DNA of 59,930 bases from an uncultured virus (IMG/VR IMGVR_UViG_3300038656_000077). Taxonomy: Duplodnaviria > Heunggongvirae > Uroviricota > Caudoviricetes. The number at the start of each line of letters is the position of its first letter. Position 1 is the stretch's first letter. Below are positions 15,330 to 28,035 of this stretch, in pieces. The notes beneath the pieces were generated by a model. That model was not told the origin of the DNA. It saw nothing but the letters and a program-made list of their open reading frames with translations, and searched no databases. A program made the translations under genes and the position numbers. Location of the stretch: the IMG/VR virus record IMGVR_UViG_3300038656_000077; one strand, written 5' to 3'.

Positions 15330-15579
15330 GCGGGGGCAACTGCAGACCTTCTATAGACAAAACCCCCCAAGAAATTTTTGAGTTTTTCCCTACCCCCCTA
15401 TCTATATATCAAAAGACCCCCACCCCCTCTTAAAAGCTTTTAAAATAAGTTTGAGTAAAAAATAAAGTTTTTTAAAAATTTAACATTTTGTTAAGATATT
15501 TAAGTGATAAGGTTTTGTATCTTTGGATAAGAAAGGAGTTTACACTGACCTCCTGTAATTTAACAAAAATTTTAACACT

Positions 15580-15936
15580 ATGAAATTACTAAAAATGACT
15601 ACCGAAGATTTTTTAAACAAGCTAAAGTCGTTAACTTTTAAGAACTATGAAGGTAGTGATAAGCTAATTACGGACTTAAAAACGGGTTTAACACTTTCTT
15701 ATTATACGACAAAAAATGATGGTAAACCTCAAATAGTGATGTATATAAGCGACACAAAGACAAATGCACATTTGCAATCGTGGGGGGCTGAAAACCTAGA
15801 GGATAATAATAAGATAATCGACTTTTTCGTTAGTGAAGTATCAAAGCTAATTGAGCTACCTTATGAGGAAAAAGAAAAAGGACTTAAAGCACAAAGAGAA
15901 GCCAAAGCAAAGTTAATCAAATTTTTAGAGAGCTAA
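15580..15936 (+). CDS. Hypothetical early protein
   Basis: 118 aa, AACACTATG start. Confidence 0.7.
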   Translation: MKLLKMTTEDFLNKLKSLTFKNYEGSDKLITDLKTGLTLSYYTTKNDGKPQIVMYISDTKTNAHLQSWGAENLEDNNKIIDFFVSEVSKLIELPYEEKEKGLKAQREAKAKLIKFLES

Positions 15937-16004
15937 ATAAACACCATTAAACGCCGTTCCTCATTGGTTTGGGGGGCGGTATCTAACTTTAAAACACTAC
16001 AACA

Positions 16005-16478
16005 ATGCAATATTTTAAAGACTGTACTACATTAGATGAAGCTAAAAAAGTTTATAGGACTTTATTAATGCAGTATCATCCCGATAAACAAGCGGGAAGC
16101 CATACCAAAACTATTGATTTAATTAACCAATTTAAAACTTTCCGACCAAAGGTTAATAACGGTAAAAATCAAAACTTTGACTTTGATAAATTCCACGACC
16201 TTGTGATGAAGTTTGAAAACTTAAACAATTTAACTATTAGTTTTGTGGGGAGTTGGATATGGATAGAGGGAGATACCTATAGCCAAAAAGATAAGATAAA
16301 AGCTATTGTGATAGAGGGTTACAATACTGCCCATTTCGCTTCAAAGAAAAAAGCGTGGTATATAGCACCTAAACAGAAGGGGAAAAAGAGGAGGTCAAGC
16401 GGTAAGTCATTAGAGACTATAAAAGCGACCTATGGTAATCAAACCTATAAGACCAAAAAGATTAAGAAAATAGCATAA
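16005..16478 (+). CDS. DnaJ (J-domain) protein
   Basis: AKKVYRTLLMQYHPDK. Confidence 0.8.
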   Translation: MQYFKDCTTLDEAKKVYRTLLMQYHPDKQAGSHTKTIDLINQFKTFRPKVNNGKNQNFDFDKFHDLVMKFENLNNLTISFVGSWIWIEGDTYSQKDKIKAIVIEGYNTAHFASKKKAWYIAPKQKGKKRRSSGKSLETIKATYGNQTYKTKKIKKIA

Positions 16479-16552
16479 TATTTTAACAGTCCTTTAGCAT
16501 TTTATAAGGTTAAAAATGCTTATCTTTGTAACGAACTCAAAAACAAAACACT

Positions 16553-16867
16553 ATGAAACTACTACCAAAAATCTACGGTCAAAATAACTACCCTTTACAT
16601 AGAGGGAGTAATTACAGGGTTGTAGATATTAAAACAAGTAATAACGGCTATTTAATTACTAAACTTTCCGATTTTGCTAGTGTTCAAAAAATAAAGTTAG
16701 TTTATAATAAAAACGGTTTTTCAAAAGCGACTGTTAAGGTAAATACTAATTATAGAACACCATACAGTTACACGCTATATTTTGATAATAAAGGTAACGA
16801 AATAATATCAAAAGATAACAGCGATTCAAAAGAGCGTAAAATGTGGCTAGATTTACAAAAAGATTAA
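16553..16867 (+). CDS. Hypothetical early protein
   Basis: Own promoter, AAACACTATG start. Confidence 0.7.
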   Translation: MKLLPKIYGQNNYPLHRGSNYRVVDIKTSNNGYLITKLSDFASVQKIKLVYNKNGFSKATVKVNTNYRTPYSYTLYFDNKGNEIISKDNSDSKERKMWLDLQKD

Positions 16868-16936
16868 CAAACTATTAAGAAGGTGAAACCCTCTTAATTG
16901 GGGATTTATTCTTATCTTTACATAAAATAAAACACT

Positions 16937-17149
16937 ATGAAAAAAGCATTTTTGACTATCAAAGGAGTAAGAATTTTGGGTTCTGACGGGTTAATGTTTA
17001 TAGATGGTAGGTATAACCTAAGATCACAAATAAACGCAGTAGAGCAAAGAAACGAAAGGTTTAAAAAGAATTTTCCTCATAAGGTAGCCGATGGATTCTA
17101 TATAGTAGATGAAAGGTTAAACCAAGTAGGAGATATCATAAATCTTTAA
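16937..17149 (+). CDS. Hypothetical early protein
   Basis: Own promoter, AAACACTATG start. Confidence 0.7.
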   Translation: MKKAFLTIKGVRILGSDGLMFIDGRYNLRSQINAVEQRNERFKKNFPHKVADGFYIVDERLNQVGDIINL

Positions 17150-17475
17150 CAAACTATTAACAAAATAAATCCTCGTAATTGGGGATTTATTTTTATCTTT
17201 ACATAAAATAAAACACTATGAAACTATTATTATCATCAAAAAGTAAAACAGGCGTAATAAGATTATTAAATGCTCATTTCTATTCAACTACCTACGATAT
17301 TATGGGCGACCTTGTGACGTGGAAAGGAGGGCAAATAAAAGATAATTTGACCTATAAAGTCAAGAAAGGAAGGCATCTAATTTATCAAAGCTAATTTAAC
17401 AAACTATTAACAAAATAAATCCTCGTAATTGGGGATTTATCCTTATCTTTGTAACGAACTCAAAAACAAAACACT

Positions 17476-17835
17476 ATGATAACCACTTACTACACTTTTT
17501 ACGAAAACATTATTTTGAACGCTATTGATTTGGAGTCGTTCAATATTGACACAAAAGACTTAAATGGCAAGCAACAAATTGATGAGGTTTACAGTATATT
17601 TTTAAGGGAATATGGGCACGAAATTACTAGGCAAGGTAGTAAGAAAAAAGCTTTTACCAGCTATTTAAGCGGTTTGCCAACTGTTTTAGACGTTCCTTTT
17701 ATGAATTATCATATATTAAAGAACGCAAAGGATAAAGGTTTTAATTTAACGACCGAAAAAGAGGAGGAATATTTTTTGAATAATTATTTTACAAACCTAG
17801 CGGTCGCATTTTTCGACCTCAAAGAAAATTTATAA
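17476..17835 (+). CDS. Hypothetical early protein, paralogue of 20288-20656
   Basis: Shared TFYE..IL.AI.L, GLP..L.VP.MN..IL, AFF.LK.NL. Confidence 0.75.
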   Translation: MITTYYTFYENIILNAIDLESFNIDTKDLNGKQQIDEVYSIFLREYGHEITRQGSKKKAFTSYLSGLPTVLDVPFMNYHILKNAKDKGFNLTTEKEEEYFLNNYFTNLAVAFFDLKENL

Positions 17836-18037
17836 TTTTATTAACATTAATAACCCTCAAATAGTTGTATCTTTGAGGGTAAATTAAAAACACTATGAAA
17901 AAGCAAATAAAAGACTACTTAAAACACTTAAATACTTATAAGGCGGTTTATATACCTATCTTTATAATAATAACGGTTTTAATTAGTGTAATGGCGTACT
18001 TAAATTATTTTATTAACTCTTTATTATTTTAAGCACT

Positions 18038-18229
18038 ATGGAATTTCAAACGATTGAACAACAAATTGAAAGATTAGTATATGACAATATTACTGAACCC
18101 CCTTCAAGGCTTATAAGCATCTTAAAGGCTAAAGGCTTCGATTATGTGGTATCAAGAAAAGGCGCAAAGGTAGTGTATATAGTCAGACCACTAAAAAGAA
18201 ATGGTAAAAAATATAAGGTGAAACTTTAA
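18038..18229 (+). CDS. Small basic protein, paralogue of 20724-20906
   Basis: M.F.TI.QQ ... GA.V.YI.R ... KL. Confidence 0.7.
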   Translation: MEFQTIEQQIERLVYDNITEPPSRLISILKAKGFDYVVSRKGAKVVYIVRPLKRNGKKYKVKL

Positions 18230-18305
18230 TGTTTCGTTAACACTATAAACTAAATATTATCCTTATCTTTGTATCAAATAATAATAATTAAAAAACACTA
18301 TCACT

Positions 18306-18596
18306 ATGAAACTATCAACATTAAAGAGTAGATTAAAAGGTTTTGGAAAAACTTACAATCTTACTACAGTCAGCGGGAAGGAAGTACCTAACCAATTAAT
18401 AACGGACTTTGATAATGGCAGAGTATTTATAAGCTATAACAGTATAATAGCTATCAATTACAAAGGCAAAATATATCTAACTGATAAATGGGACTATTCA
18501 GCTACTACAGGCAAGTATAGAAACCAATTTTTAAATGAAGGTATAGCCGATACAAGGGAAAAAATCAAAAGCGGCATATACAAGCTAGTCAAGTAA
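18306..18596 (+). CDS. Phage early protein (hypothetical)
   Basis: F.SY.SIIA...WDYSATTGKYRNQFL motif. Confidence 0.7.
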   Translation: MKLSTLKSRLKGFGKTYNLTTVSGKEVPNQLITDFDNGRVFISYNSIIAINYKGKIYLTDKWDYSATTGKYRNQFLNEGIADTREKIKSGIYKLVK

Positions 18597-18903
18597 TTTA
18601 ATAAAACTAAAATTATGAAAACATTATACTACATACTAAACACAAAAACAGATCAAAGTTTTGACACAATGGAAATGAAATTTTACTCTAATAGCTGGGA
18701 GCCTGAAATGGAAGAGGATAAAGAGTATTTACAAAGATTGATCGACGACTACCCCGAAAGATTTGAAAACTGTATCATCGCCAGTAGATAATAACAGTTA
18801 TTACAAACTAATTAATAAGGATGTACTTAAAGGGATAGTAAACACACTAGCCCCTATTGTATAGAGGGGGGATGCAATACCCGCCACAAAGTAAGCACAA
18901 CAA

Positions 18904-19104
18904 ATGCAAAAGAATAAAACAAAAGTATACAAAGACTATATAAGGTACGTACTAATAGACCATAGGGATAACACTGCAACGGTTTACCACTATAAAAAGG
19001 ATATAAGTAAGGTTATAGGTATAACGGTAAGGACTCTAACCCGTAATAAGGTTTACTCAAAAGGTAATTTTAGTATGTACACAATAAAAGAACTAAAAAT
19101 ATAG
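18904..19104 (+). CDS. Small basic protein, possible HTH
   Basis: ISKVIGITVRTL. Confidence 0.55.
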   Translation: MQKNKTKVYKDYIRYVLIDHRDNTATVYHYKKDISKVIGITVRTLTRNKVYSKGNFSMYTIKELKI

Positions 19105-19220
19105 CAAAATGTCGTGTTTTATACCCTATATGGCTACAAACACGACACTTCAATTAATTTTTCATAGTGTTTTAGTGTTTGACCTCAGCAGTTTAGTAGT
19201 GTTTTCTGTTGAGGTTTTTT
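19105..19220 (+). ncRNA. Candidate antisense sRNA / 3' UTR ending in an intrinsic terminator
   Basis: 5' hairpin GTCGTGTTT/AAACACGAC, 3 x TAGTGTTT, terminator ACCTCAGCAG/CTGTTGAGGT plus T-run. Confidence 0.45.
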
Positions 19221-20287
19221 ATTTTAACCCCTTGAAACACAATAATATAGGCTATTTTTAAAGGCGGTTTGTCTCTTTATGGTATAATAAGCCATTGAGG
19301 AGGCAATAAGCGACGCAAAGGAATAACAAACGGTTAAACCATCATTAGTATATATAAGCATAGTAGTAAAATAGAAAATTTAAGAGGAAATTGACGAAAG
19401 TTAAATGTTTGGGAGGGTGCGTGTTTACTAGGGTTTGGACACTTTTGACCCCCAACCACGCCCTATATACAACTTACCTATTGCAAGCCCCTCCATATAC
19501 GTTCGCTATACCTTATATACTTACTTACCTTATTGTTATTTTCTTTTTTGTTTCTTTCTTTTATCTTTGTTATTTTTGTTTTGGTTTTGTTAGTTTGTTT
19601 TGATGTTCTGTTTTATTATCCTGCGGCGAGGATTTAATACTTTAAATTGTGTGTTTAGTTATTGCAGTAGTTTATGACTATAAATAATACTAACTACAAG
19701 CCATTTAAGCTACTTTTTAGCCATTTACAGAGGGTTACAAGTTTAGTATATATTCTATATTCAAAAAAGATAGTTAGCTTATTGTAGATAGCTTAAAAAG
19801 ATTTATGATTTTATTAACTTTATTAATCAATTATTGTTTGTATCTTTGTATTGAACTAAAAAATAAAACACCATGAAAAATATTAATTACATTACAGTAA
19901 TAGCCTATTTTATCCTTATGATAATAGGAGCATATCTAATTGAACAGGCTAATTTTAACGGACTGTATTTTATTTGTGGAGGGATAGCGGTTTTAGTCCT
20001 CGCAAGATTTAGTAAACTTTTAAGAGATTATTAACAGTTAGAACCATTTTCTTTACATAAATATTAAAACAATATGAAAAAGTTTGAAACAGTACTAGTA
20101 AACACCTTTTTCACTAAGGAGGAATTAAGTGATATGCAAGACCTTATTAATAATGGTTTTGACGTACAAGAGGACGAAATTAATATTTTGATTGATGCCT
20201 TAATATACGATAATATTTAACAACCCATTAACACAATTATCTAATAATTAGCCTTATCTTTGTAAGGAACAAAAACAATAAAACACT

Positions 20288-20656
20288 ATGAAAACGTTAA
20301 CATTTTACGAAACTACAATTTTAGATGCTATCAGTTTAAATGGTATAGAAATAAAGGACGAAGCCAACATAAAAACCCTTGATAAGTTAAGGGATAAGTT
20401 AAGGGCAGTTTATGAGATATTTTTAAGTGAGTATATACACGAGTATAACGAACATATACCAAGAGAACACCTTTTTAAAGAATGGATGATGGGTTTACCC
20501 TCCGCATTAGAAGTACCATCTATGAACCATGAAATTTTAATTAATGTTACAGAATCGGGCTTTAATATGTTATCTGAAGAAGTAGAGGACAGTATTTTAA
20601 GTACTTACTGGGAAAGATGCGCAAAAGCTTTTTTTACTCTAAAAGATAACCTATAA
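20288..20656 (+). CDS. Hypothetical early protein, paralogue of 17476-17835
   Basis: See paralogue. Confidence 0.75.
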   Translation: MKTLTFYETTILDAISLNGIEIKDEANIKTLDKLRDKLRAVYEIFLSEYIHEYNEHIPREHLFKEWMMGLPSALEVPSMNHEILINVTESGFNMLSEEVEDSILSTYWERCAKAFFTLKDNL

Positions 20657-20723
20657 AAAAGGCAGTCCTTAAAGGTTATACGGTTAAACCCTTATTTTTT
20701 CTAACCTCAAATAAATACTACCT

Positions 20724-20906
20724 ATGGACTTTATTACAATAGATCAACAAGCAAGAGAAGCAGTAAAACTATATGCGGGCGCACCTATAGAGTTAACGAA
20801 ACAGTTAAACAAATTAGGCATAAGATACGTAAAAGTCCAAAGGGGAGCGAGTGTAAGGTATATATTAAGGGGCGAGAAGATAAGAAGAACTGAAATAAAA
20901 CTTTAA
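20724..20906 (+). CDS. Small basic protein, paralogue of 18038-18229
   Basis: See paralogue. Confidence 0.7.
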   Translation: MDFITIDQQAREAVKLYAGAPIELTKQLNKLGIRYVKVQRGASVRYILRGEKIRRTEIKL

Positions 20907-20964
20907 CTTAGTATTGGGAACTATAACCAGTAAATAGTATTATCTTTACAGAAACAAAAACACT

Positions 20965-21270
20965 ATGGAAGAGCTAAAAGTAAAACTCAAAGAGTTACAA
21001 CAAGAAGTAAGAAACAAGCAGTACGAAATTGACAATTTTGAAATTGATAGATACGACAAAGAAGATCAATTTTGTGATATGTTAGACGAAGCTTATCCAA
21101 AGCTTTTTAATATGCTACCCTCACGCATATTGAGGGAGTGTGACCCTATTAGGTACAATGAAGAGTTAAGCAACTACGTTGACTCTATGGAAGTTTCAGA
21201 CGAGCCAGCATATAAGGAACTGGAGGACGAACTCGAAGAAATAGAGGATGAAATTTTAGATTTGCAATAA
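20965..21270 (+). CDS. Highly acidic early protein (possible DNA mimic)
   Basis: D/E-rich, PSRILRECDPIRY. Confidence 0.7.
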   Translation: MEELKVKLKELQQEVRNKQYEIDNFEIDRYDKEDQFCDMLDEAYPKLFNMLPSRILRECDPIRYNEELSNYVDSMEVSDEPAYKELEDELEEIEDEILDLQ

Positions 21271-21308
21271 CAAATGCGAGAGAATAAGAACAGAAAACTA
21301 AACAAGCT

Positions 21309-21542
21309 ATGAAAGTAACAAGAACAAACAACACAACAAAGCCAAAAATCAATTTTCCATGTATTATGGAGCTAACAACAAAACCAGAAGTTATAGTTTA
21401 TGTAACAGGAGAAGAAGATGGAGCATATATGGGTATAGCCCTAAGCCACCCTCAACTTGAAAAATGGAATAAGGAGATAACAAAATGGGATATGGACGTG
21501 TTTGTCCCTATGAAAGAAGGAGTATTATTAGAGAACGACTAA
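21309..21542 (+). CDS. Hypothetical protein
   Basis: 77 aa. Confidence 0.6.
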   Translation: MKVTRTNNTTKPKINFPCIMELTTKPEVIVYVTGEEDGAYMGIALSHPQLEKWNKEITKWDMDVFVPMKEGVLLEND

Positions 21543-21893
21543 AAAGGCGATTTGCTTTGTTAATAGCCGTATATTTGAATAACGAAAAACACTAGAAATT
21601 ATGGAAACAGTAAAATTTAATAATGCAGATTTAGAATTTTATATTGATAAAATACAGTCTTTTGATGTACCTATAACAGTAGCAAAAGCATTTGATGATA
21701 ACTTAGACTATCCTTATGCAATGAATGTTGAAGATGAGAGCTTTTTTATATAACTCAAATGGAAAGAGATACAGATTTTGACAAGTTAAAAAGCGTTGTA
21801 CCACAATTTTCTTTTGTTGAACTTTAACTTACCCTTAACAGGATTATCTAATCATTAACCTTACCTTTGAATAACACTAAAACACAAAATATT

Positions 21894-22130
21894 ATGACAC
21901 TAGAATTAAACATACAAGGCTATTTCGATTTTACAATTTGTATATTGAATACCGAAATTCCAATAGAAAACGAAATAGCTTTAGGGGTACTAGACAACCT
22001 GCAACAAGGCGAATATATGATAGGTATTGGAAGTAGAACCATATTCGATACAAACGACCTATTAACACCTCTATACAGTTTTGTTATGGAAGCCACAAAC
22101 AACACAGAGTACAATTTTGATGAATATTAA
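21894..22130 (+). CDS. Hypothetical early protein
   Basis: ATG 21894 after repeat promoter. Confidence 0.6.
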   Translation: MTLELNIQGYFDFTICILNTEIPIENEIALGVLDNLQQGEYMIGIGSRTIFDTNDLLTPLYSFVMEATNNTEYNFDEY

Positions 22131-22322
22131 AACCTTGAAATTATGAACGTATTACAATTATTTAAGAAAGACAGCGAAGAGTTAAAAAGTTTCTTAAAAG
22201 TTATATTGTAGATTACAGCGGTCAAGGCGGTTTTATAAGAAAAGCCAAAGTTTAACATTCCATTAACACACCAAGTGAATATTGTACCCTATATTTGTTA
22301 AACAATTAAAACACTAGAAATT

Positions 22323-22565
22323 ATGACATATCAAAAACAAGTAAGCATAATAGAGGAAATGCAATCAAAAGGATTTAACGTATGTAGTTGCGGTAATTGT
22401 GGGGGCATTATACTATTAAATGAAGAGACAAAGCCTAAAATGGAAGATGATAGCGAAGGTATATATTGCCCCCATTGTAAGGTAGAAATGGCTTATTCAG
22501 ATTGTCCCGACTATTACTATGAAGGTATGCCCGAGTTAAACGAAGAGCGAAATAATGAAAATTAA
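22323..22565 (+). CDS. Zinc-ribbon protein
   Basis: CGNC...CPHC. Confidence 0.7.
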   Translation: MTYQKQVSIIEEMQSKGFNVCSCGNCGGIILLNEETKPKMEDDSEGIYCPHCKVEMAYSDCPDYYYEGMPELNEERNNEN

Positions 22566-22589
22566 CACAAAAGAAAAACTATAGAAATT

Positions 22590-23180
22590 ATGAGAACTAT
22601 AAAGAGTTATTTACCGTGTTTTTTGGGATTTTATAACACCCTATTTGAGTACGACAATGAAGAGTTTGATATTGAAAACTACAATGAAGAGAATGGTACT
22701 GACCTATCGTTCGATGATTTTGAATTTAACTATGAAGATTATAGTAAAAGAATTTCAAAGGCGTGCGTTGATGAAATTGAAACATATTTGCAAGGTGATG
22801 ACTTTAAAATTAAATTGGAATTTGAGCAGTTAAAAAGTCCACGTGAATATAATTTAGCCACAGATGAAATACAAGTTACCTATATATTAGGACAGCGTGA
22901 ATTTACTAAGTTTACAGATTATTTGGAAGATAACATTGAAGCCTTCAAAGAGTACATTAAAGAACGTTATACGAGCCGCTCTGGATTCAGTAGTTTCTAT
23001 TCAAACGATGCTAATGATTGGATTACCGATTTCAAGATAGCCACAGATGATGAATTATCTCATACCTTTGGCACTCTATTGGAATTCTACTTTGAGAATG
23101 AGGGTTATTCAGATGAAGATTTGAGCGAAGCGGTGAGTTATGAAAATTACTGCGATTTTGATATTTTAACTTCAGCTTAA
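22590..23180 (+). CDS. Highly acidic early protein
   Basis: 196 aa, F.GFY.T, SPREYN..TD, SRSGF.SFY. Confidence 0.75.
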   Translation: MRTIKSYLPCFLGFYNTLFEYDNEEFDIENYNEENGTDLSFDDFEFNYEDYSKRISKACVDEIETYLQGDDFKIKLEFEQLKSPREYNLATDEIQVTYILGQREFTKFTDYLEDNIEAFKEYIKERYTSRSGFSSFYSNDANDWITDFKIATDDELSHTFGTLLEFYFENEGYSDEDLSEAVSYENYCDFDILTSA

Positions 23181-23376
23181 CAATATAAGCCTAAAATTTT
23201 ATTATCTTTGCACATAGAAATTAGTTAAAATAGTAACTTGATTAAGGGGAACAAGTTTAAATTATTCCCGCACCACAAATAGAGGTCATTAGCATTGCGC
23301 TTTCAAAGACCAACGGAAACTGAAAGATAGGTGGAATAAAAAAAGCTATTTTATTTTTAATAAAAAAACTAAACAC

Positions 23377-23787
23377 ATGGAAAATTACGAACAAGCATCA
23401 ATTGATTTCTTGGACAATACAGGCACTACCCTTATGATAACTCACAAAGGCTATGGTAAGCATTTTCAAGAAGACAAACAGCCAAGGCACATATTCAGAT
23501 GCGAATTATCTAAGGGCAGAAATTCTTACTCTTTTGATTTCGGGCAGTCCATAGCAAGTGGATCAAAAAAGCCTACCGAATACGATATTTTAAGTTGTCT
23601 GACGAAAAACGATCCTGGCGATTTTGAAGACTTTTGTGGGGATTTTGGATATGACCCCTATGAGAAAGAGAGTAAACGCACGTACAAAGAGAGTAAACGC
23701 ACGCACAAGGCTTTAATCAAGGAATATGAGGGTGTTTCTCGTATTTGGGACAGCGAAGAGTTGGAATTATTAATGGAAATAGAATAA
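23377..23787 (+). CDS. Hypothetical phage protein
   Basis: PTEYDILSCL...FEDFC.DFGY; 21-bp tandem duplication (KESKRTY/KESKRTH). Confidence 0.75.
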   Translation: MENYEQASIDFLDNTGTTLMITHKGYGKHFQEDKQPRHIFRCELSKGRNSYSFDFGQSIASGSKKPTEYDILSCLTKNDPGDFEDFCGDFGYDPYEKESKRTYKESKRTHKALIKEYEGVSRIWDSEELELLMEIE

Positions 23788-23858
23788 AATTTAACAACCC
23801 CTTAACTATATTAACCTCAAAGATACCTTATCTTTATATCTCACAAAAAACAGAAATT

Positions 23859-24336
23859 ATGAACAACCCATTAGACAGTACAGGAGTAACAGATACAAGA
23901 GATTTAATCGAATACAAAGAGTATTTGGAATCCGAAATTTTAGATGCTTACACAGATTGGGCAGAGAGCCATAACGAATACAAAGACGAAGGCATAGAAG
24001 ATTTAGAAATTCCCTATTCATTCGATGAAATTGAGTTTATTGATGAAGAAGCGTTTACAATAGGTATTCAAGATACAATAGACGAGTACGAAGCGATCAG
24101 AGATTTTTTGTCAAGAGTTGGAAGGTTACGGAGATTCTGAACACGGAGAAACTCTAATTGCAGAAGATTATTTTGAAGAGTATGCAGAAGAGTTAACAAA
24201 GGATTGTGGTTATATTCCCGATAATTTACCCTCATATATCGAAAACAACATTGATTGGGAAGGCGTGGCAGACGATTTAAAATTAGATTATACCGAAGCG
24301 TATTTTGAAGGTATAGCATACTTAATGAGGGCATAA
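23859..24336 (+). pseudogene. ArdA-like antirestriction protein, frameshifted
   Basis: Paralogue of 28170-28640; removing one T from T6 at 24104-24109 joins the two ORFs; YIENNIDWEGVADDL. Confidence 0.65.
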
Positions 24337-24440
24337 ACATTAACAAAACTTTATCTTTTTACAACTAATAAAAACAAAAACACTATGGAAGAGCTAACAG
24401 TAAAACTTGAAGAAATAGGACTAAAAAGAAAATAGAAATT

Positions 24441-24779
24441 ATGAAAAATAATAAACTTATTGCAGAATTTATGGGTGCAAACCCATTTAGAGAGTATGTA
24501 AATGAAGATATATTTTCCTATGAGTTATATGGGATAATTGAGGTCATTGATGATGGAGAACACGAAAAGCACTTTTTCTTGCCCGAAGAAATGTTATTTA
24601 ACGAGTATTGGGATTGGTTAATGCCAGCAGTTAAAAAATGTTTAATATTGACTTGTGATAACGATTGGCACGAGTGGGATTTATCCATAGCTGAAACATT
24701 AAGATCAGTAGATATAAAAACTGTTTACGAAGAAGTTGTAGAGTTTATAAAGTTTTATAATTCTTTAGCTCACTCTTAA
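24441..24779 (+). CDS. Hypothetical phage protein
   Basis: NKLIAEFMG...WDWLMP. Confidence 0.7.
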   Translation: MKNNKLIAEFMGANPFREYVNEDIFSYELYGIIEVIDDGEHEKHFFLPEEMLFNEYWDWLMPAVKKCLILTCDNDWHEWDLSIAETLRSVDIKTVYEEVVEFIKFYNSLAHS

Positions 24780-24829
24780 CAGTTATGCTCAATTGTTAAT
24801 CGTACCTTTGAGCAACATTAAAAAAAATT

Positions 24830-25051
24830 ATGGAAAGAAAGTATTTTAATATAAATGGTTATTGGAAAGATAACAAGGAGGAATTTGAAGGCTATATCGT
24901 TACAAATTACAATGATATGGAAGTGGATTCAGATTATGAGGAAGAGGATATATTCATGTTTGGTATGGATGAACGTTTATTAATTGAAGCCATAGAACTC
25001 AAAGAAGATATTATACATGATTTTGTTACAACGTCTTACACAGAAATTTAA
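24830..25051 (+). CDS. Acidic hypothetical protein
   Basis: 73 aa, own promoter. Confidence 0.65.
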   Translation: MERKYFNINGYWKDNKEEFEGYIVTNYNDMEVDSDYEEEDIFMFGMDERLLIEAIELKEDIIHDFVTTSYTEI

Positions 25052-25289
25052 AAACACAAAACTATGATAACTTTACTAGCAAAAAGAATTGGAACAGGAG
25101 TTAATCTCTATGACAAAGAAAACAACTTAAAGGCTATATTCCCAAGACGAGGGTACAGACCGACTAAGGCTACAAAGGAAGTGATGGTTAATTGTTGGAA
25201 GTATAAATTAGAGTGGATTTAACATAGATTTAAGAATATACTGTTATTTTTAGCTTATCTTTGAGTATAATTTAAAACAATAAAACACC

Positions 25290-25652
25290 ATGAGAAGTAA
25301 ATACAATTTTGTACAAGTTTATAATGTTTGGGTAAATGGTAGAAGTGTGGAGGACGTAGACCAACATTATCCAATTGACAACACAGTTGAGAGAGCATGG
25401 CACAATGATTTTAATAAAGCCGTAAAAGACTTTAATACTGCAAAAGCAACGGAAAGTAATAAAAACGATTTTGGAGAGGAATATTTCAAAGATTATAGTG
25501 TAGTACTTTATGTAATTGATATAGATGTAGAAAAGTTTGAGCAAGAATATGAAATGGAATTTGATTTAAGTAGCGATGAAGTACAAGAAGCAATACCATA
25601 TTATGATGATTATAGATTTACTTGTGTAGCGGAGAGAATAGCTAAATTTTAA
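25290..25652 (+). CDS. Acidic hypothetical protein
   Basis: 120 aa, own promoter. Confidence 0.65.
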   Translation: MRSKYNFVQVYNVWVNGRSVEDVDQHYPIDNTVERAWHNDFNKAVKDFNTAKATESNKNDFGEEYFKDYSVVLYVIDIDVEKFEQEYEMEFDLSSDEVQEAIPYYDDYRFTCVAERIAKF

Positions 25653-25779
25653 ACGGAAGGTATAAATAATGGTGAGGAAGAGCATATTGAAGTTGTTAAG
25701 AACGGATTTGCTATTGAATGGTTATGGTTCGGAGTATTTATTGAAGTATCTTAAAAACTATTAATTTAAAAGAATAATT

Positions 25780-26118
25780 ATGACATACGAAATTATAAAA
25801 AGTAAAGGTTGGTTACAAACAGATGCTAGTTTAGAAACCATGCAATATGGTCGTAAAATTAGCGAGTATGTTTGGGAGTATAGAGAAGTTGATAAGCAGT
25901 ACTTAACAGATGAAAAAGCCTTATCGGATTTCGATAATTGGCATGAAGATGAGATTGATGTGCTATTATACAGTATGAAAGATTTAAGGAATATTATTAA
26001 CTCTTATGGCTATACAATGGATGACTACCACATACTAGAGCAAAGCGGAGAAATATTCACAAAAGAAGATTCAATACAGCTAATAGCAGAGTGCGTTTTT
26101 GAATATGAACATTATTAG
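25780..26118 (+). CDS. Acidic hypothetical protein
   Basis: 112 aa. Confidence 0.65.
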   Translation: MTYEIIKSKGWLQTDASLETMQYGRKISEYVWEYREVDKQYLTDEKALSDFDNWHEDEIDVLLYSMKDLRNIINSYGYTMDDYHILEQSGEIFTKEDSIQLIAECVFEYEHY

Positions 26119-26196
26119 ATATAAAGTTAAGACTTTAACTCTATATTAAGATTATAAACCAACAAGTAATTGTATCTTTGATAAAAAATAAACACC

Positions 26197-27205
26197 ATGA
26201 AAAAAGCAATAATAGTTGAGTACAATTTTATGACACGAATAATTGTAGAAGAAGGACAAGAAACCTTTAATAACCTTGTTGCCCTATCTAAGCAAAAAAT
26301 TCAAGATAAGTTAGACAATAATGAATTAGGAGAGAATTTTTCAGGATGGTATGATGATAAAGAAATGCCGTATGAACCGCCTATGTTATCAAATGATGAA
26401 ATTATTGAACACCTATATAGTGATTTTGAAGCTAATAAAGAGTCTATAGCTCACATGTTATTAGGGGTTCTACAAAGTGAAAGTACCTCTAAGGTTTACT
26501 GGGATGCTTATTTTAAGGGAGCAACAGGACAAGATTTAGAGAGAGCCGAAAAAGGTATAATTTATAAAGGATAATCGCTATGGAAAATAAAATAGAAAAC
26601 TTTACGCAAAGGCAGAAAGCAGATAGTATTTACGAAACATTGGGAGAACTAGATTTTGCTATGTTATATGACTATGACCTAGTTTCCTATGGTGCGGTTA
26701 CGGAAGAAGAAGCCGATAAATTAAAATTAATGTTAGAAGAAGCATTAGATAACCTATTTTACAAGATGCAAGAGTTTGACAATAAAAATAAATAACATGA
26801 CACAGAATCAAAAAGCAATATTAGCAATTACAGATAAGGGAGTAATAGCATTTGAAGAAAATGATACAGTTTACATAGAGGTGGAAGAAACACCTTTTGA
26901 AATATCAGAGTTTGAAATAAACTTTCAAGCCAAATTATATAGTGAAACTTTAACAGAATTTAACACAGAAAATAAATAAGATGAAATTCACACAAGAAAT
27001 TCAAAAAGCAAAAGATTTATTAGAAAGCAAGGGTTATTTTACATATAATCTTTGGCAAACTGATGACGTTACAAACAGATATGAATGTGAAGAGAATGAT
27101 GCTCAAGAGGTATTAAAAGGAGCATTAACCAATTTAGCAGTAATAGAAAGCATTTGGTATGCTATAGATGTTCATGCGGAAGAAATAGGACTAAAAAGAA
27201 AATAG
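26197..27205 (+). CDS. Four coupled small hypothetical genes (26197-26574, 26580-26795, 26797-26979, 26981-27205)
   Basis: Tightly packed + strand ORFs after a repeat promoter. Confidence 0.6.
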
Positions 27206-27210
27206 AAATT

Positions 27211-28035
27211 ATGGATTTTCAAACATTAGGAGATTGGTGCAAATGGTTAGAGAAAAACTTTTCTAACGAACAAATGATACCTACATTACCTGTTATTATC
27301 AGATTAGATGGTAATAACTTTCACAATTGGACAAAAGGATTAGAAAGACCTTTTGATAAAAAACTAACCGAATTAATGACTGAAACTACAAAGTTTTTAG
27401 TTAAAGAAACAAATGCAGTTATTGGTTACACGCAAAGCGATGAAATTACTTTGATTCTTTATTCAAGTGATAGGAAAAGGGCTATTTATAATGCTGGTAA
27501 AAAGCAAAAAATAGTTTCTAAACTTACTGCAAAATGTGTTAACTTTTTTAATGAAAAGAGAAAAGAATTATTACCCACACACGACAAAGTAGCTGTGTTT
27601 GATTGTAGAATTTACCAAACACCGACATTACACGATGCTTGTGTACAATTATTGTGGCGTGAAAATGATGCTACAAAAAATAGCGTTTCGATGTTAGCTC
27701 AAAGTTTATTCTCACACAAGCAACTTCAAAAGTTAAACGGTAGTGAAATGCAAGATAAAATGATGATTGAAAAACAAGTCAATTGGAACGATTTAGAAAC
27801 AAAACTAAAACGTGGAACTTATGTTAAACGTTTAAAAACATCCAAACCTTTTTCTACAAATGAATTGAAAGATTTACCACCAATGCATCAAGCACATAAA
27901 AATCCAAATTTAACAATTGAAAGGTCAACTATTAAAGAAATTGAATATCCTGTTTTTAGCAAAATTGTAAACAAAGAAGATGTTATATTTTTTGGTGCTG
28001 AACCGATTTTGAATGTTTATACCGAAGTCGTTTAA
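27211..28035 (+). CDS. thg1: tRNA(His) guanylyltransferase Thg1-like protein
   Basis: IIRLDGNNFH, YTQSDEITL, FDCR, WRENDATKNS. Confidence 0.92.
   Translation: MDFQTLGDWCKWLEKNFSNEQMIPTLPVIIRLDGNNFHNWTKGLERPFDKKLTELMTETTKFLVKETNAVIGYTQSDEITLILYSSDRKRAIYNAGKKQKIVSKLTAKCVNFFNEKRKELLPTHDKVAVFDCRIYQTPTLHDACVQLLWRENDATKNSVSMLAQSLFSHKQLQKLNGSEMQDKMMIEKQVNWNDLETKLKRGTYVKRLKTSKPFSTNELKDLPPMHQAHKNPNLTIERSTIKEIEYPVFSKIVNKEDVIFFGAEPILNVYTEVV

Follow-up and report, generated by a model that had tools for sequence, protein, structure and literature searches.

The untranslated 3′ end of an early operon in the 59.9-kb phage-like contig analysed here (the whole stretch, 32% G+C, is called the window) carries an inverted copy of the start region that the early genes of the same phage share. 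The explanation that we rank first for this element (19105-19225, + strand) is a functional antisense tail that would dampen early translation, and, on the sequence and the modelled RNA pairing, we give this reading a probability of roughly 0.4. Such a tail would present a hairpin, an open linker of about 33 nt and an intrinsic terminator at the untranslated 3′ end of the operon, with the inverted copy in the linker most likely derived from an inverted duplication of a cassette gene start. The tail RNA would pair with the leader and AUG of the operon that carries it, and with those of about 17 further early messages. Because Bacteroidota ribosomes need an unstructured A-rich leader, the duplex would hide the whole start region, and as double-stranded RNA it could be cleaved by nucleases; the net effect would be a damping of early-gene translation as early transcripts build up. 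The anatomy, cluster statistics and predicted pairing energies of the element are direct observations, and we infer that a stable tail RNA is made, that it pairs in cells and that this pairing lowers translation. The features concerned are as follows.

18264..18271, + strand: operon promoter box (-7 element, Bacteroidota-type), TATCTTTG
18293..18311, + strand: operon leader and start codon, AAACACTA-T-CACTATGAAA, with the ATG at 18306
18306..19104, + strand: early operon with genes of 96, 58 and 66 aa, ending 5 nt upstream of the element
19110..19147, + strand: 5′ hairpin in which TGTCGTGTTT pairs with AAACACGACA; its 3′ arm, 19138-19147, is a leader mimic
19158..19181, + strand: anti-leader box, in which the consensus leader, the ATG and two codons stand inverted over 22-24 nt; holds TAGTGTTT at 19165 and 19173
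19183..19225, + strand: intrinsic terminator, stem 19183-19191 with 19206-19214 and T-run 19215-19225
19226..19840, + strand: non-coding block, adjoining the element in 6/6 variants, with a T-rich tract that holds TATCTTTG-type boxes
19234..19245, + strand: second leader mimic, GAAACACAATAA, directly after the terminator
19841..19875, + strand: next cassette, with a TATCTTTG box, a leader and the ATG of a 53-aa gene

The assignment of the element to the operon rests on the distribution of promoter boxes. No promoter boxes or terminators were seen between the genes of the operon 18306-19104, and the + strand has no TAnnTTTG box from 18264 to 19562, the sole candidate being a weak TAATTTTA at 19065. 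Since there is no promoter box of its own upstream of the element, we read it as the 3′ UTR of the operon. The preliminary description had proposed an sRNA with the complement between a 5′ hairpin and a + strand terminator. Both hairpins, with an open linker between them, are indeed present in the sequence and the predicted fold, and the single-stranded seed (as predicted) and the intrinsic terminator expected of a stand-alone sRNA gene were found, but its own promoter was not; the element is thus better taken as the end of the early operon transcript than as a separate sRNA gene. An ORF at 19109-19261 (50 aa) was considered as a gene and rejected: it crosses the terminator, and the five variant SNPs are one synonymous and four non-synonymous changes. 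The 66-aa protein encoded just upstream matched no Pfam family at threshold, an Xre-like HTH being sub-threshold (E 0.18); in the Atlas it was found only in viral clusters, together with weak NUMOD1-type leads at 0.80-0.83, and AlphaFold, run on the single sequence, gave a poor model (mean pLDDT 53.4).

The sequence to which the tail is complementary is strongly over-represented. It was found that AACACYATG occurs 13 times in the window, compared to 0.92 expected, and that 0/100 shuffles reached 13. Twelve of these copies are on the + strand (15574-26199), and the single - strand copy (19163-19171) lies inside the element. ORFs of 45-125 aa begin at 11 of the + strand copies, and the 11 gene starts that had been listed as sharing the motif (15580 to 26197) were all confirmed. 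The twelfth + strand copy, at 24385, begins a 16-codon remnant (MEELTVKLEEIGLKRK, then stop; 24385-24435) of a paralogue of gene 20965. The leader has A at -3, -6, -12 and -13, and the available text of PMC6847099 describes these as positive initiation determinants in Flavobacterium johnsoniae and attributes start choice in Bacteroidota to an open A-rich leader instead of a Shine-Dalgarno sequence.

The motif had been taken for a tag of a dedicated early regulon, and this did not hold: it also heads genes of unrelated phages, which have no same-strand complement, and many bacterial genes. Several genes starting with AAACACTATG were found in unrelated IMG/VR contigs (L096 with L082; L110; and L081, at 55% G+C). 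The 18-mer ATAAAACACTATGAAAAA was found at at least 120 loci in bacterial genomes, and 82 of the 120 listed loci (L227-L346) have a frame that stays open from the ATG up to the end of the locus; among the matches listed, 50 of the 80 titled rows carry Bacteroidota names, the taxonomy being assigned from these names. The reading frames headed by ATAAAACACTATGAAAAA encode MKK... proteins. Therefore, the motif is a host-type start context and not private to the phage; within the window, it is a strong start context of this type that a mobile cassette carries at its 3′ edge. Eight + strand copies (e.g., 21601, 22323, 24441 and 29061) make up a second shared leader class, (T)AGAAATTATG, for which there is no exact complement on the same strand. 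In an IMG/VR contig of 24% G+C (L136, 1755-1815, flipped), a tandem array of AAACACTATR units of about 10 nt looks iteron-like.

The early genes are each preceded by a repeated module, the 3′ end of which is the shared start motif. Its order is a stem-loop (in some copies), a TTATCTTTG or TAnnTTTG box, 3-23 nt of spacer and AAAACAC(T/C)ATG. The longest repeat family (D3) has three copies of 91 nt; the stem-loop is clear in this family, where two of the three copies were listed as terminator-like, and is not evident in all cassettes. TATCTTTR has 36 matches compared to 13.7 expected, 15 of them + strand copies in 15.5-26.2 kb, and TATCTTTR/TAnnTTTG boxes precede the shared leaders; TTTG/TANNTTTG is given as the Bacteroidetes -33/-7 promoter consensus in the available text of PMC6847099. 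In another repeat family (D1, 16482-23856), TTAAC-N5-8-TTAAC stands about 38 nt upstream of the TAnnTTTG box in early cassettes and is possibly an UP-like or factor-binding element.

The cassettes are sites of recombination. Skips and joints at cassette borders (e.g., 20282 to 20649 and 16940 to 17392) were present in contigs of 4/4 metagenome runs, and beyond 20958 metagenome contigs have the same leader with different genes behind it. Six JGI variants retain 18904-19850 at 97-99% identity, and in all six the genes behind the 19841 promoter differ. By these alignments, the cassettes allow close relatives to gain, lose and replace genes. A complete promoter-leader cassette also stands before the 24385-24435 remnant, which looks like a sense-strand recombination scar.

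Within the element, the preliminary description had noted a 16-nt complement of the start motif; the sequence at 19158-19173 is TTTTTCATAGTGTTTT, as it had stated, and the complementarity is longer, at 22-24 nt. It extends over 22 nt with 20273-20294 (95% identity) and over 24 nt with 16921-16944 (88%), and the best stretches are 22 nt with one mismatch (gene 20288), 17 nt perfect (16937) and 16 nt perfect (17895); many leaders are thus matched about equally well, as expected of a consensus. The segment 19149-19181 takes part in seven of the 25 longest inverted repeats found in 14-28 kb. In the window as a whole, TAGTGTTT has 20 matches vs. 5.5 expected, and the + strand has five, three of them at 19165, 19173 and 19197. 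At least three + strand copies within 40 nt, as in 19165-19204, were obtained in 0/500 dinucleotide shuffles, and at least two in 1/500. The tandem pair mirrors the quasi-repeat AAACAATAAAACACTA of the natural leader and therefore does not represent two independent seeds. The third copy is carried by the 14-nt terminator loop, as had been described, although its coordinates are 19197-19204 and not 19196-19203. A terminator scan did not report this hairpin because it takes loops of 3-8 nt only.

The predicted fold of 19105-19225 has an energy of -30.7 kcal/mol (z -4.5). In the centroid fold, 19148-19180 is open, forming the linker of about 33 nt between hairpin and terminator, and in the MFE fold the mimic in the hairpin 3′ arm pairs with the anti-leader rather than closing the hairpin. 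Rfam searches of 18800-19950 (1.15 kb) at E up to 5 returned only chance-level matches to LhrC, NBR2 and VrrA, the LhrC match (RF00616) reaching 24.9 bits against a gathering threshold of 110 (E 0.36).

Predicted pairing between the tail and the early start regions was evaluated by a duplex scan of + strand windows in 14-30 kb against 18 early start regions. The best anti-leader window, at 19154, had a mean duplex energy of -18.8 kcal/mol, compared to a background of -3.9 +/- 1.65; the next-best windows were those at 19190 (the terminator loop, -12.4 kcal/mol) and 19580 (a T/G-rich tract, -10.9 kcal/mol). When the terminated transcript 18278-19222 was folded, the operon leader 18293-18311 paired with 19160-19180 at a probability of about 1. 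In a read-through model (18278-19930), the box was predicted to pair with a local mimic at 19221-19242, and the pairings with its own leader and with gene 19873 vanished; such long-range fold predictions are fragile, and their outcome varies with the assumed 3′ end of the transcript.

Conservation was evaluated in the only relatives that hold the element, the six JGI metagenome contigs (97-99% identical). The element is present in 6/6 of them despite swapped neighbouring genes, and the anti-leader box is invariant in all seven aligned sequences. The SNP density in the element (5 sites per 116 nt) equals that of the flanks and the variants are 97-99% identical, and therefore this retention carries no weight. 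Two of the substitutions fall in structural parts without compensation: 19117 T>C (2/6 variants) breaks one hairpin pair, and 19197 T>C (3/6 variants) lies in the third TAGTGTTT copy. Outside these relatives, an IMG/VR pattern search for the exact element gave 0 matches. In two records of unrelated phage contigs that share the start motif, there were 0 reverse-orientation copies, and in a complete 32-kb genome sharing the motif the reverse-orientation copies are leaders of divergent genes only. The exact 10-nt leader complement on the same strand was absent from 10/10 other shared-leader loci examined, one of which (L016) matches the 8-nt core once, less often than its reversed-sequence control does.

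The window encodes a terminase, a family A DNA polymerase, a DnaB-like helicase, a UvsX-like recombinase, PhoH and thymidylate synthase, and the phage is one of Bacteroidota-type bacteria. Neither tRNAs nor Rfam families at gathering level were found in the whole window. Near-identical DNA is present in many salt-lake metagenome runs (24 listed) and in the six JGI contigs. Cultured phages include no DNA-level relative of the window, and their protein matches are distant: the nearest DNA polymerases, from podovirus-type Pseudomonas phages, are about 35% identical. In IMG/VR, the 96-aa neighbour protein retrieved 38 loci at 41-61% identity, with a maximum of two shared-leader copies in any of them, and searches with the 122-aa and 157-aa proteins retrieved no loci. 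The DNA polymerase as sole query gave three short, near-identical contigs and a polymerase alignment search gave 16 loci; the shared leader is absent from the 3/3 large contigs that were examined in full (polymerase 48-56% identical). Closer polymerases (P0002-P0007) are 71-76% identical to that of the window; one of them is encoded on a contig of 88 kb and another on one of 184 kb.

The rival explanations bear on the same observations. A neutral recombination scar, in which an aberrant event would have left an inverted gene-start fragment beside the terminator that is tolerated and inactive, is nearly as likely as the functional antisense tail. The joints and gene swaps in metagenome contigs are frequent exactly at cassette borders, and the remnant at 24385-24435 behind a complete cassette provides a sense-strand example, so that recombination does leave gene-start fragments behind. 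The - strand of the element reads as a leader, ATG, two codons and a stop (MKN), its alignment with the start of gene 19873 covers 31 columns with three mismatches and one 2-nt gap and continues into the coding sequence, and there is no signal of selection above that of the flanks. However, the box resembles the consensus more than any one gene start, and so does not look like one gene's copy. Its position in an open linker that leads straight into a terminator, together with a third copy in the loop and two flanking mimics, represents more order than a scar would be expected to show, and one would expect an abundant 24-nt RNA complementary to about 18 early start regions to have some effect. 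Occlusion in cis, in which the box of a read-through RNA would hide the start of gene 19873 so that only messages from the 19841 promoter are translated, seems quite unlikely to us. A fold of 19100-19930 pairs the box core with 19855-19892, the start of gene 19873, at P 0.9-1.0, a transcript starting at 19855 is predicted to leave this start region mostly open (0.70 unpaired), and a precedent is found in T4 genes e, soc, 49 and I-TevI, where an upstream complementary stretch hides the start in longer transcripts (as given in the available sections of PMC3014915). In the window, unlike in the T4 genes, about 680 nt and a terminator lie between the partners, the pairing is lost in the longer 18278-19930 model, and the sequence after the 19841 promoter differs in 6/6 variants.

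The boxes might also act as DNA. If AAACAC(TA) boxes bind a phage or host protein that controls early promoters, then 19114-19240, with its six boxes (four GTGTTT and two AAACAC), would be a cluster or sink for this protein. Four GTGTTT in 95 nt on one strand were obtained in 0/500 shuffles, the two oppositely oriented AAACAC copies are close by, the boxes of the early cassettes are located between promoter and ATG, and the sub-threshold Xre-like HTH match of the 66-aa protein encoded upstream would suit such a role. We nevertheless consider this explanation unlikely. The box abuts the ATG in all 12 + strand AACACYATG copies, whereas its distance from the promoter box varies from 3 to 23 nt, and this fixed contact with the ATG fits a role in translation or as a cassette border better than an operator. 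The motif is also non-palindromic, no DNA-binding domain was found at the Pfam threshold, and many Bacteroidota have this motif at the start of chromosomal genes. The least probable explanation, and a very improbable one, is a minus-strand decoy RNA, the three leader copies of which would draw off ribosomes or a protein that binds leaders, similar to the sponge RNA offered as an alternative in the preliminary description. Such an RNA would hold three AAACACTA copies and has a good predicted fold (z -6.5), but no - strand TAnnTTT[GA] box occurs in 19101-20771, the hairpin has no following U-run on that strand, a G.U pair of the terminator stem becomes a C.A mismatch there, and the neighbouring genes are all on the + strand.

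Known systems resemble the element and its cassettes in part. In the c4 antisense RNA of phages P1 and P7, short complementary stretches on the same transcript as the targets hide the ribosome-binding region, and c4 controls one operon, in immunity. The element is alike in that complementarity would hide a start region, and its candidate targets are instead about 18 separate early messages; no likeness to c4 in sequence or structure was seen, and Rfam gave no match to the family at gathering level in the window, nor at E up to 5 over 18800-19950. In another system, Staphylococcus aureus icaR, the 3′ UTR of an mRNA pairs with its own start region. The element likewise has a 3′ UTR stretch complementary to its own start region (P about 1, in the terminated-transcript fold only), but its target leader is common to many messages, and thus action in trans is equally possible. 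According to the available sections of a T4 review (PMC3014915), no trans-acting small RNA has been functionally characterised in T4.

For the cassettes, the closest likeness is to the promoter-early stem-loop (PeSL) cassettes of T4-type phages (PMC2839356, available text). Both combine a host-type early promoter and a ribosome site with start codon in one module, to which a stem-loop that may act as a terminator belongs in some of the copies in the window, and both stand before small orphan genes in a plastic region with recombination junctions between close relatives. The cassettes of the window differ from PeSLs in having a Bacteroidota TAnnTTTG promoter rather than a sigma-70 promoter and an A-rich Kozak-like leader rather than a Shine-Dalgarno sequence, and the phage, unlike PeSL carriers, is not recognisably T4-like. 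The window has an inverted leader copy, and none is described for PeSLs in the available text of PMC2839356.

If the tail truly pairs with the shared leader, the early programme of a phage would be controlled by one RNA acting on many messages, a kind of control of which few cases have been experimentally demonstrated, and the example would come from a phylum that uses an open A-rich leader rather than a Shine-Dalgarno sequence (PMC6847099, available text). A wider proposal is more doubtful, namely that in Bacteroidota phages mobile cassettes and an anti-leader tail together form a dose-dependent brake on about 18 early messages, with the mimics as a possible seed switch. Irrespective of function, the window documents PeSL-like mobile cassettes on a Bacteroidota promoter type, and salt-lake metagenomes show that genes are naturally shuffled at them.

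Several further features of the region were observed. Paralogous early gene pairs flank the non-coding block (17476-17835 and 20288-20656; 18038-18229 and 20724-20906), and the first of these pairs matches phrog_11100. A Thg1-like tRNA-His guanylyltransferase gene at 27154-28035 has 83-88% identical copies in IMG/VR contigs whose other genes are unrelated, suggesting that it is mobile; a search of IMG/VR with this protein gave 28 loci, in unrelated contexts. The structure of the non-coding block 19226-19840 is unremarkable (z -2.7 to +1.4). Its T-rich tract (19530-19620), in which the third-best anti-leader window lies, has TATCTTTG at 19562 and TATTTTTG at 19571, the latter being TATCTTTG in 6/6 variants, and may thereby promote transcription of a non-coding RNA rich in U and G.
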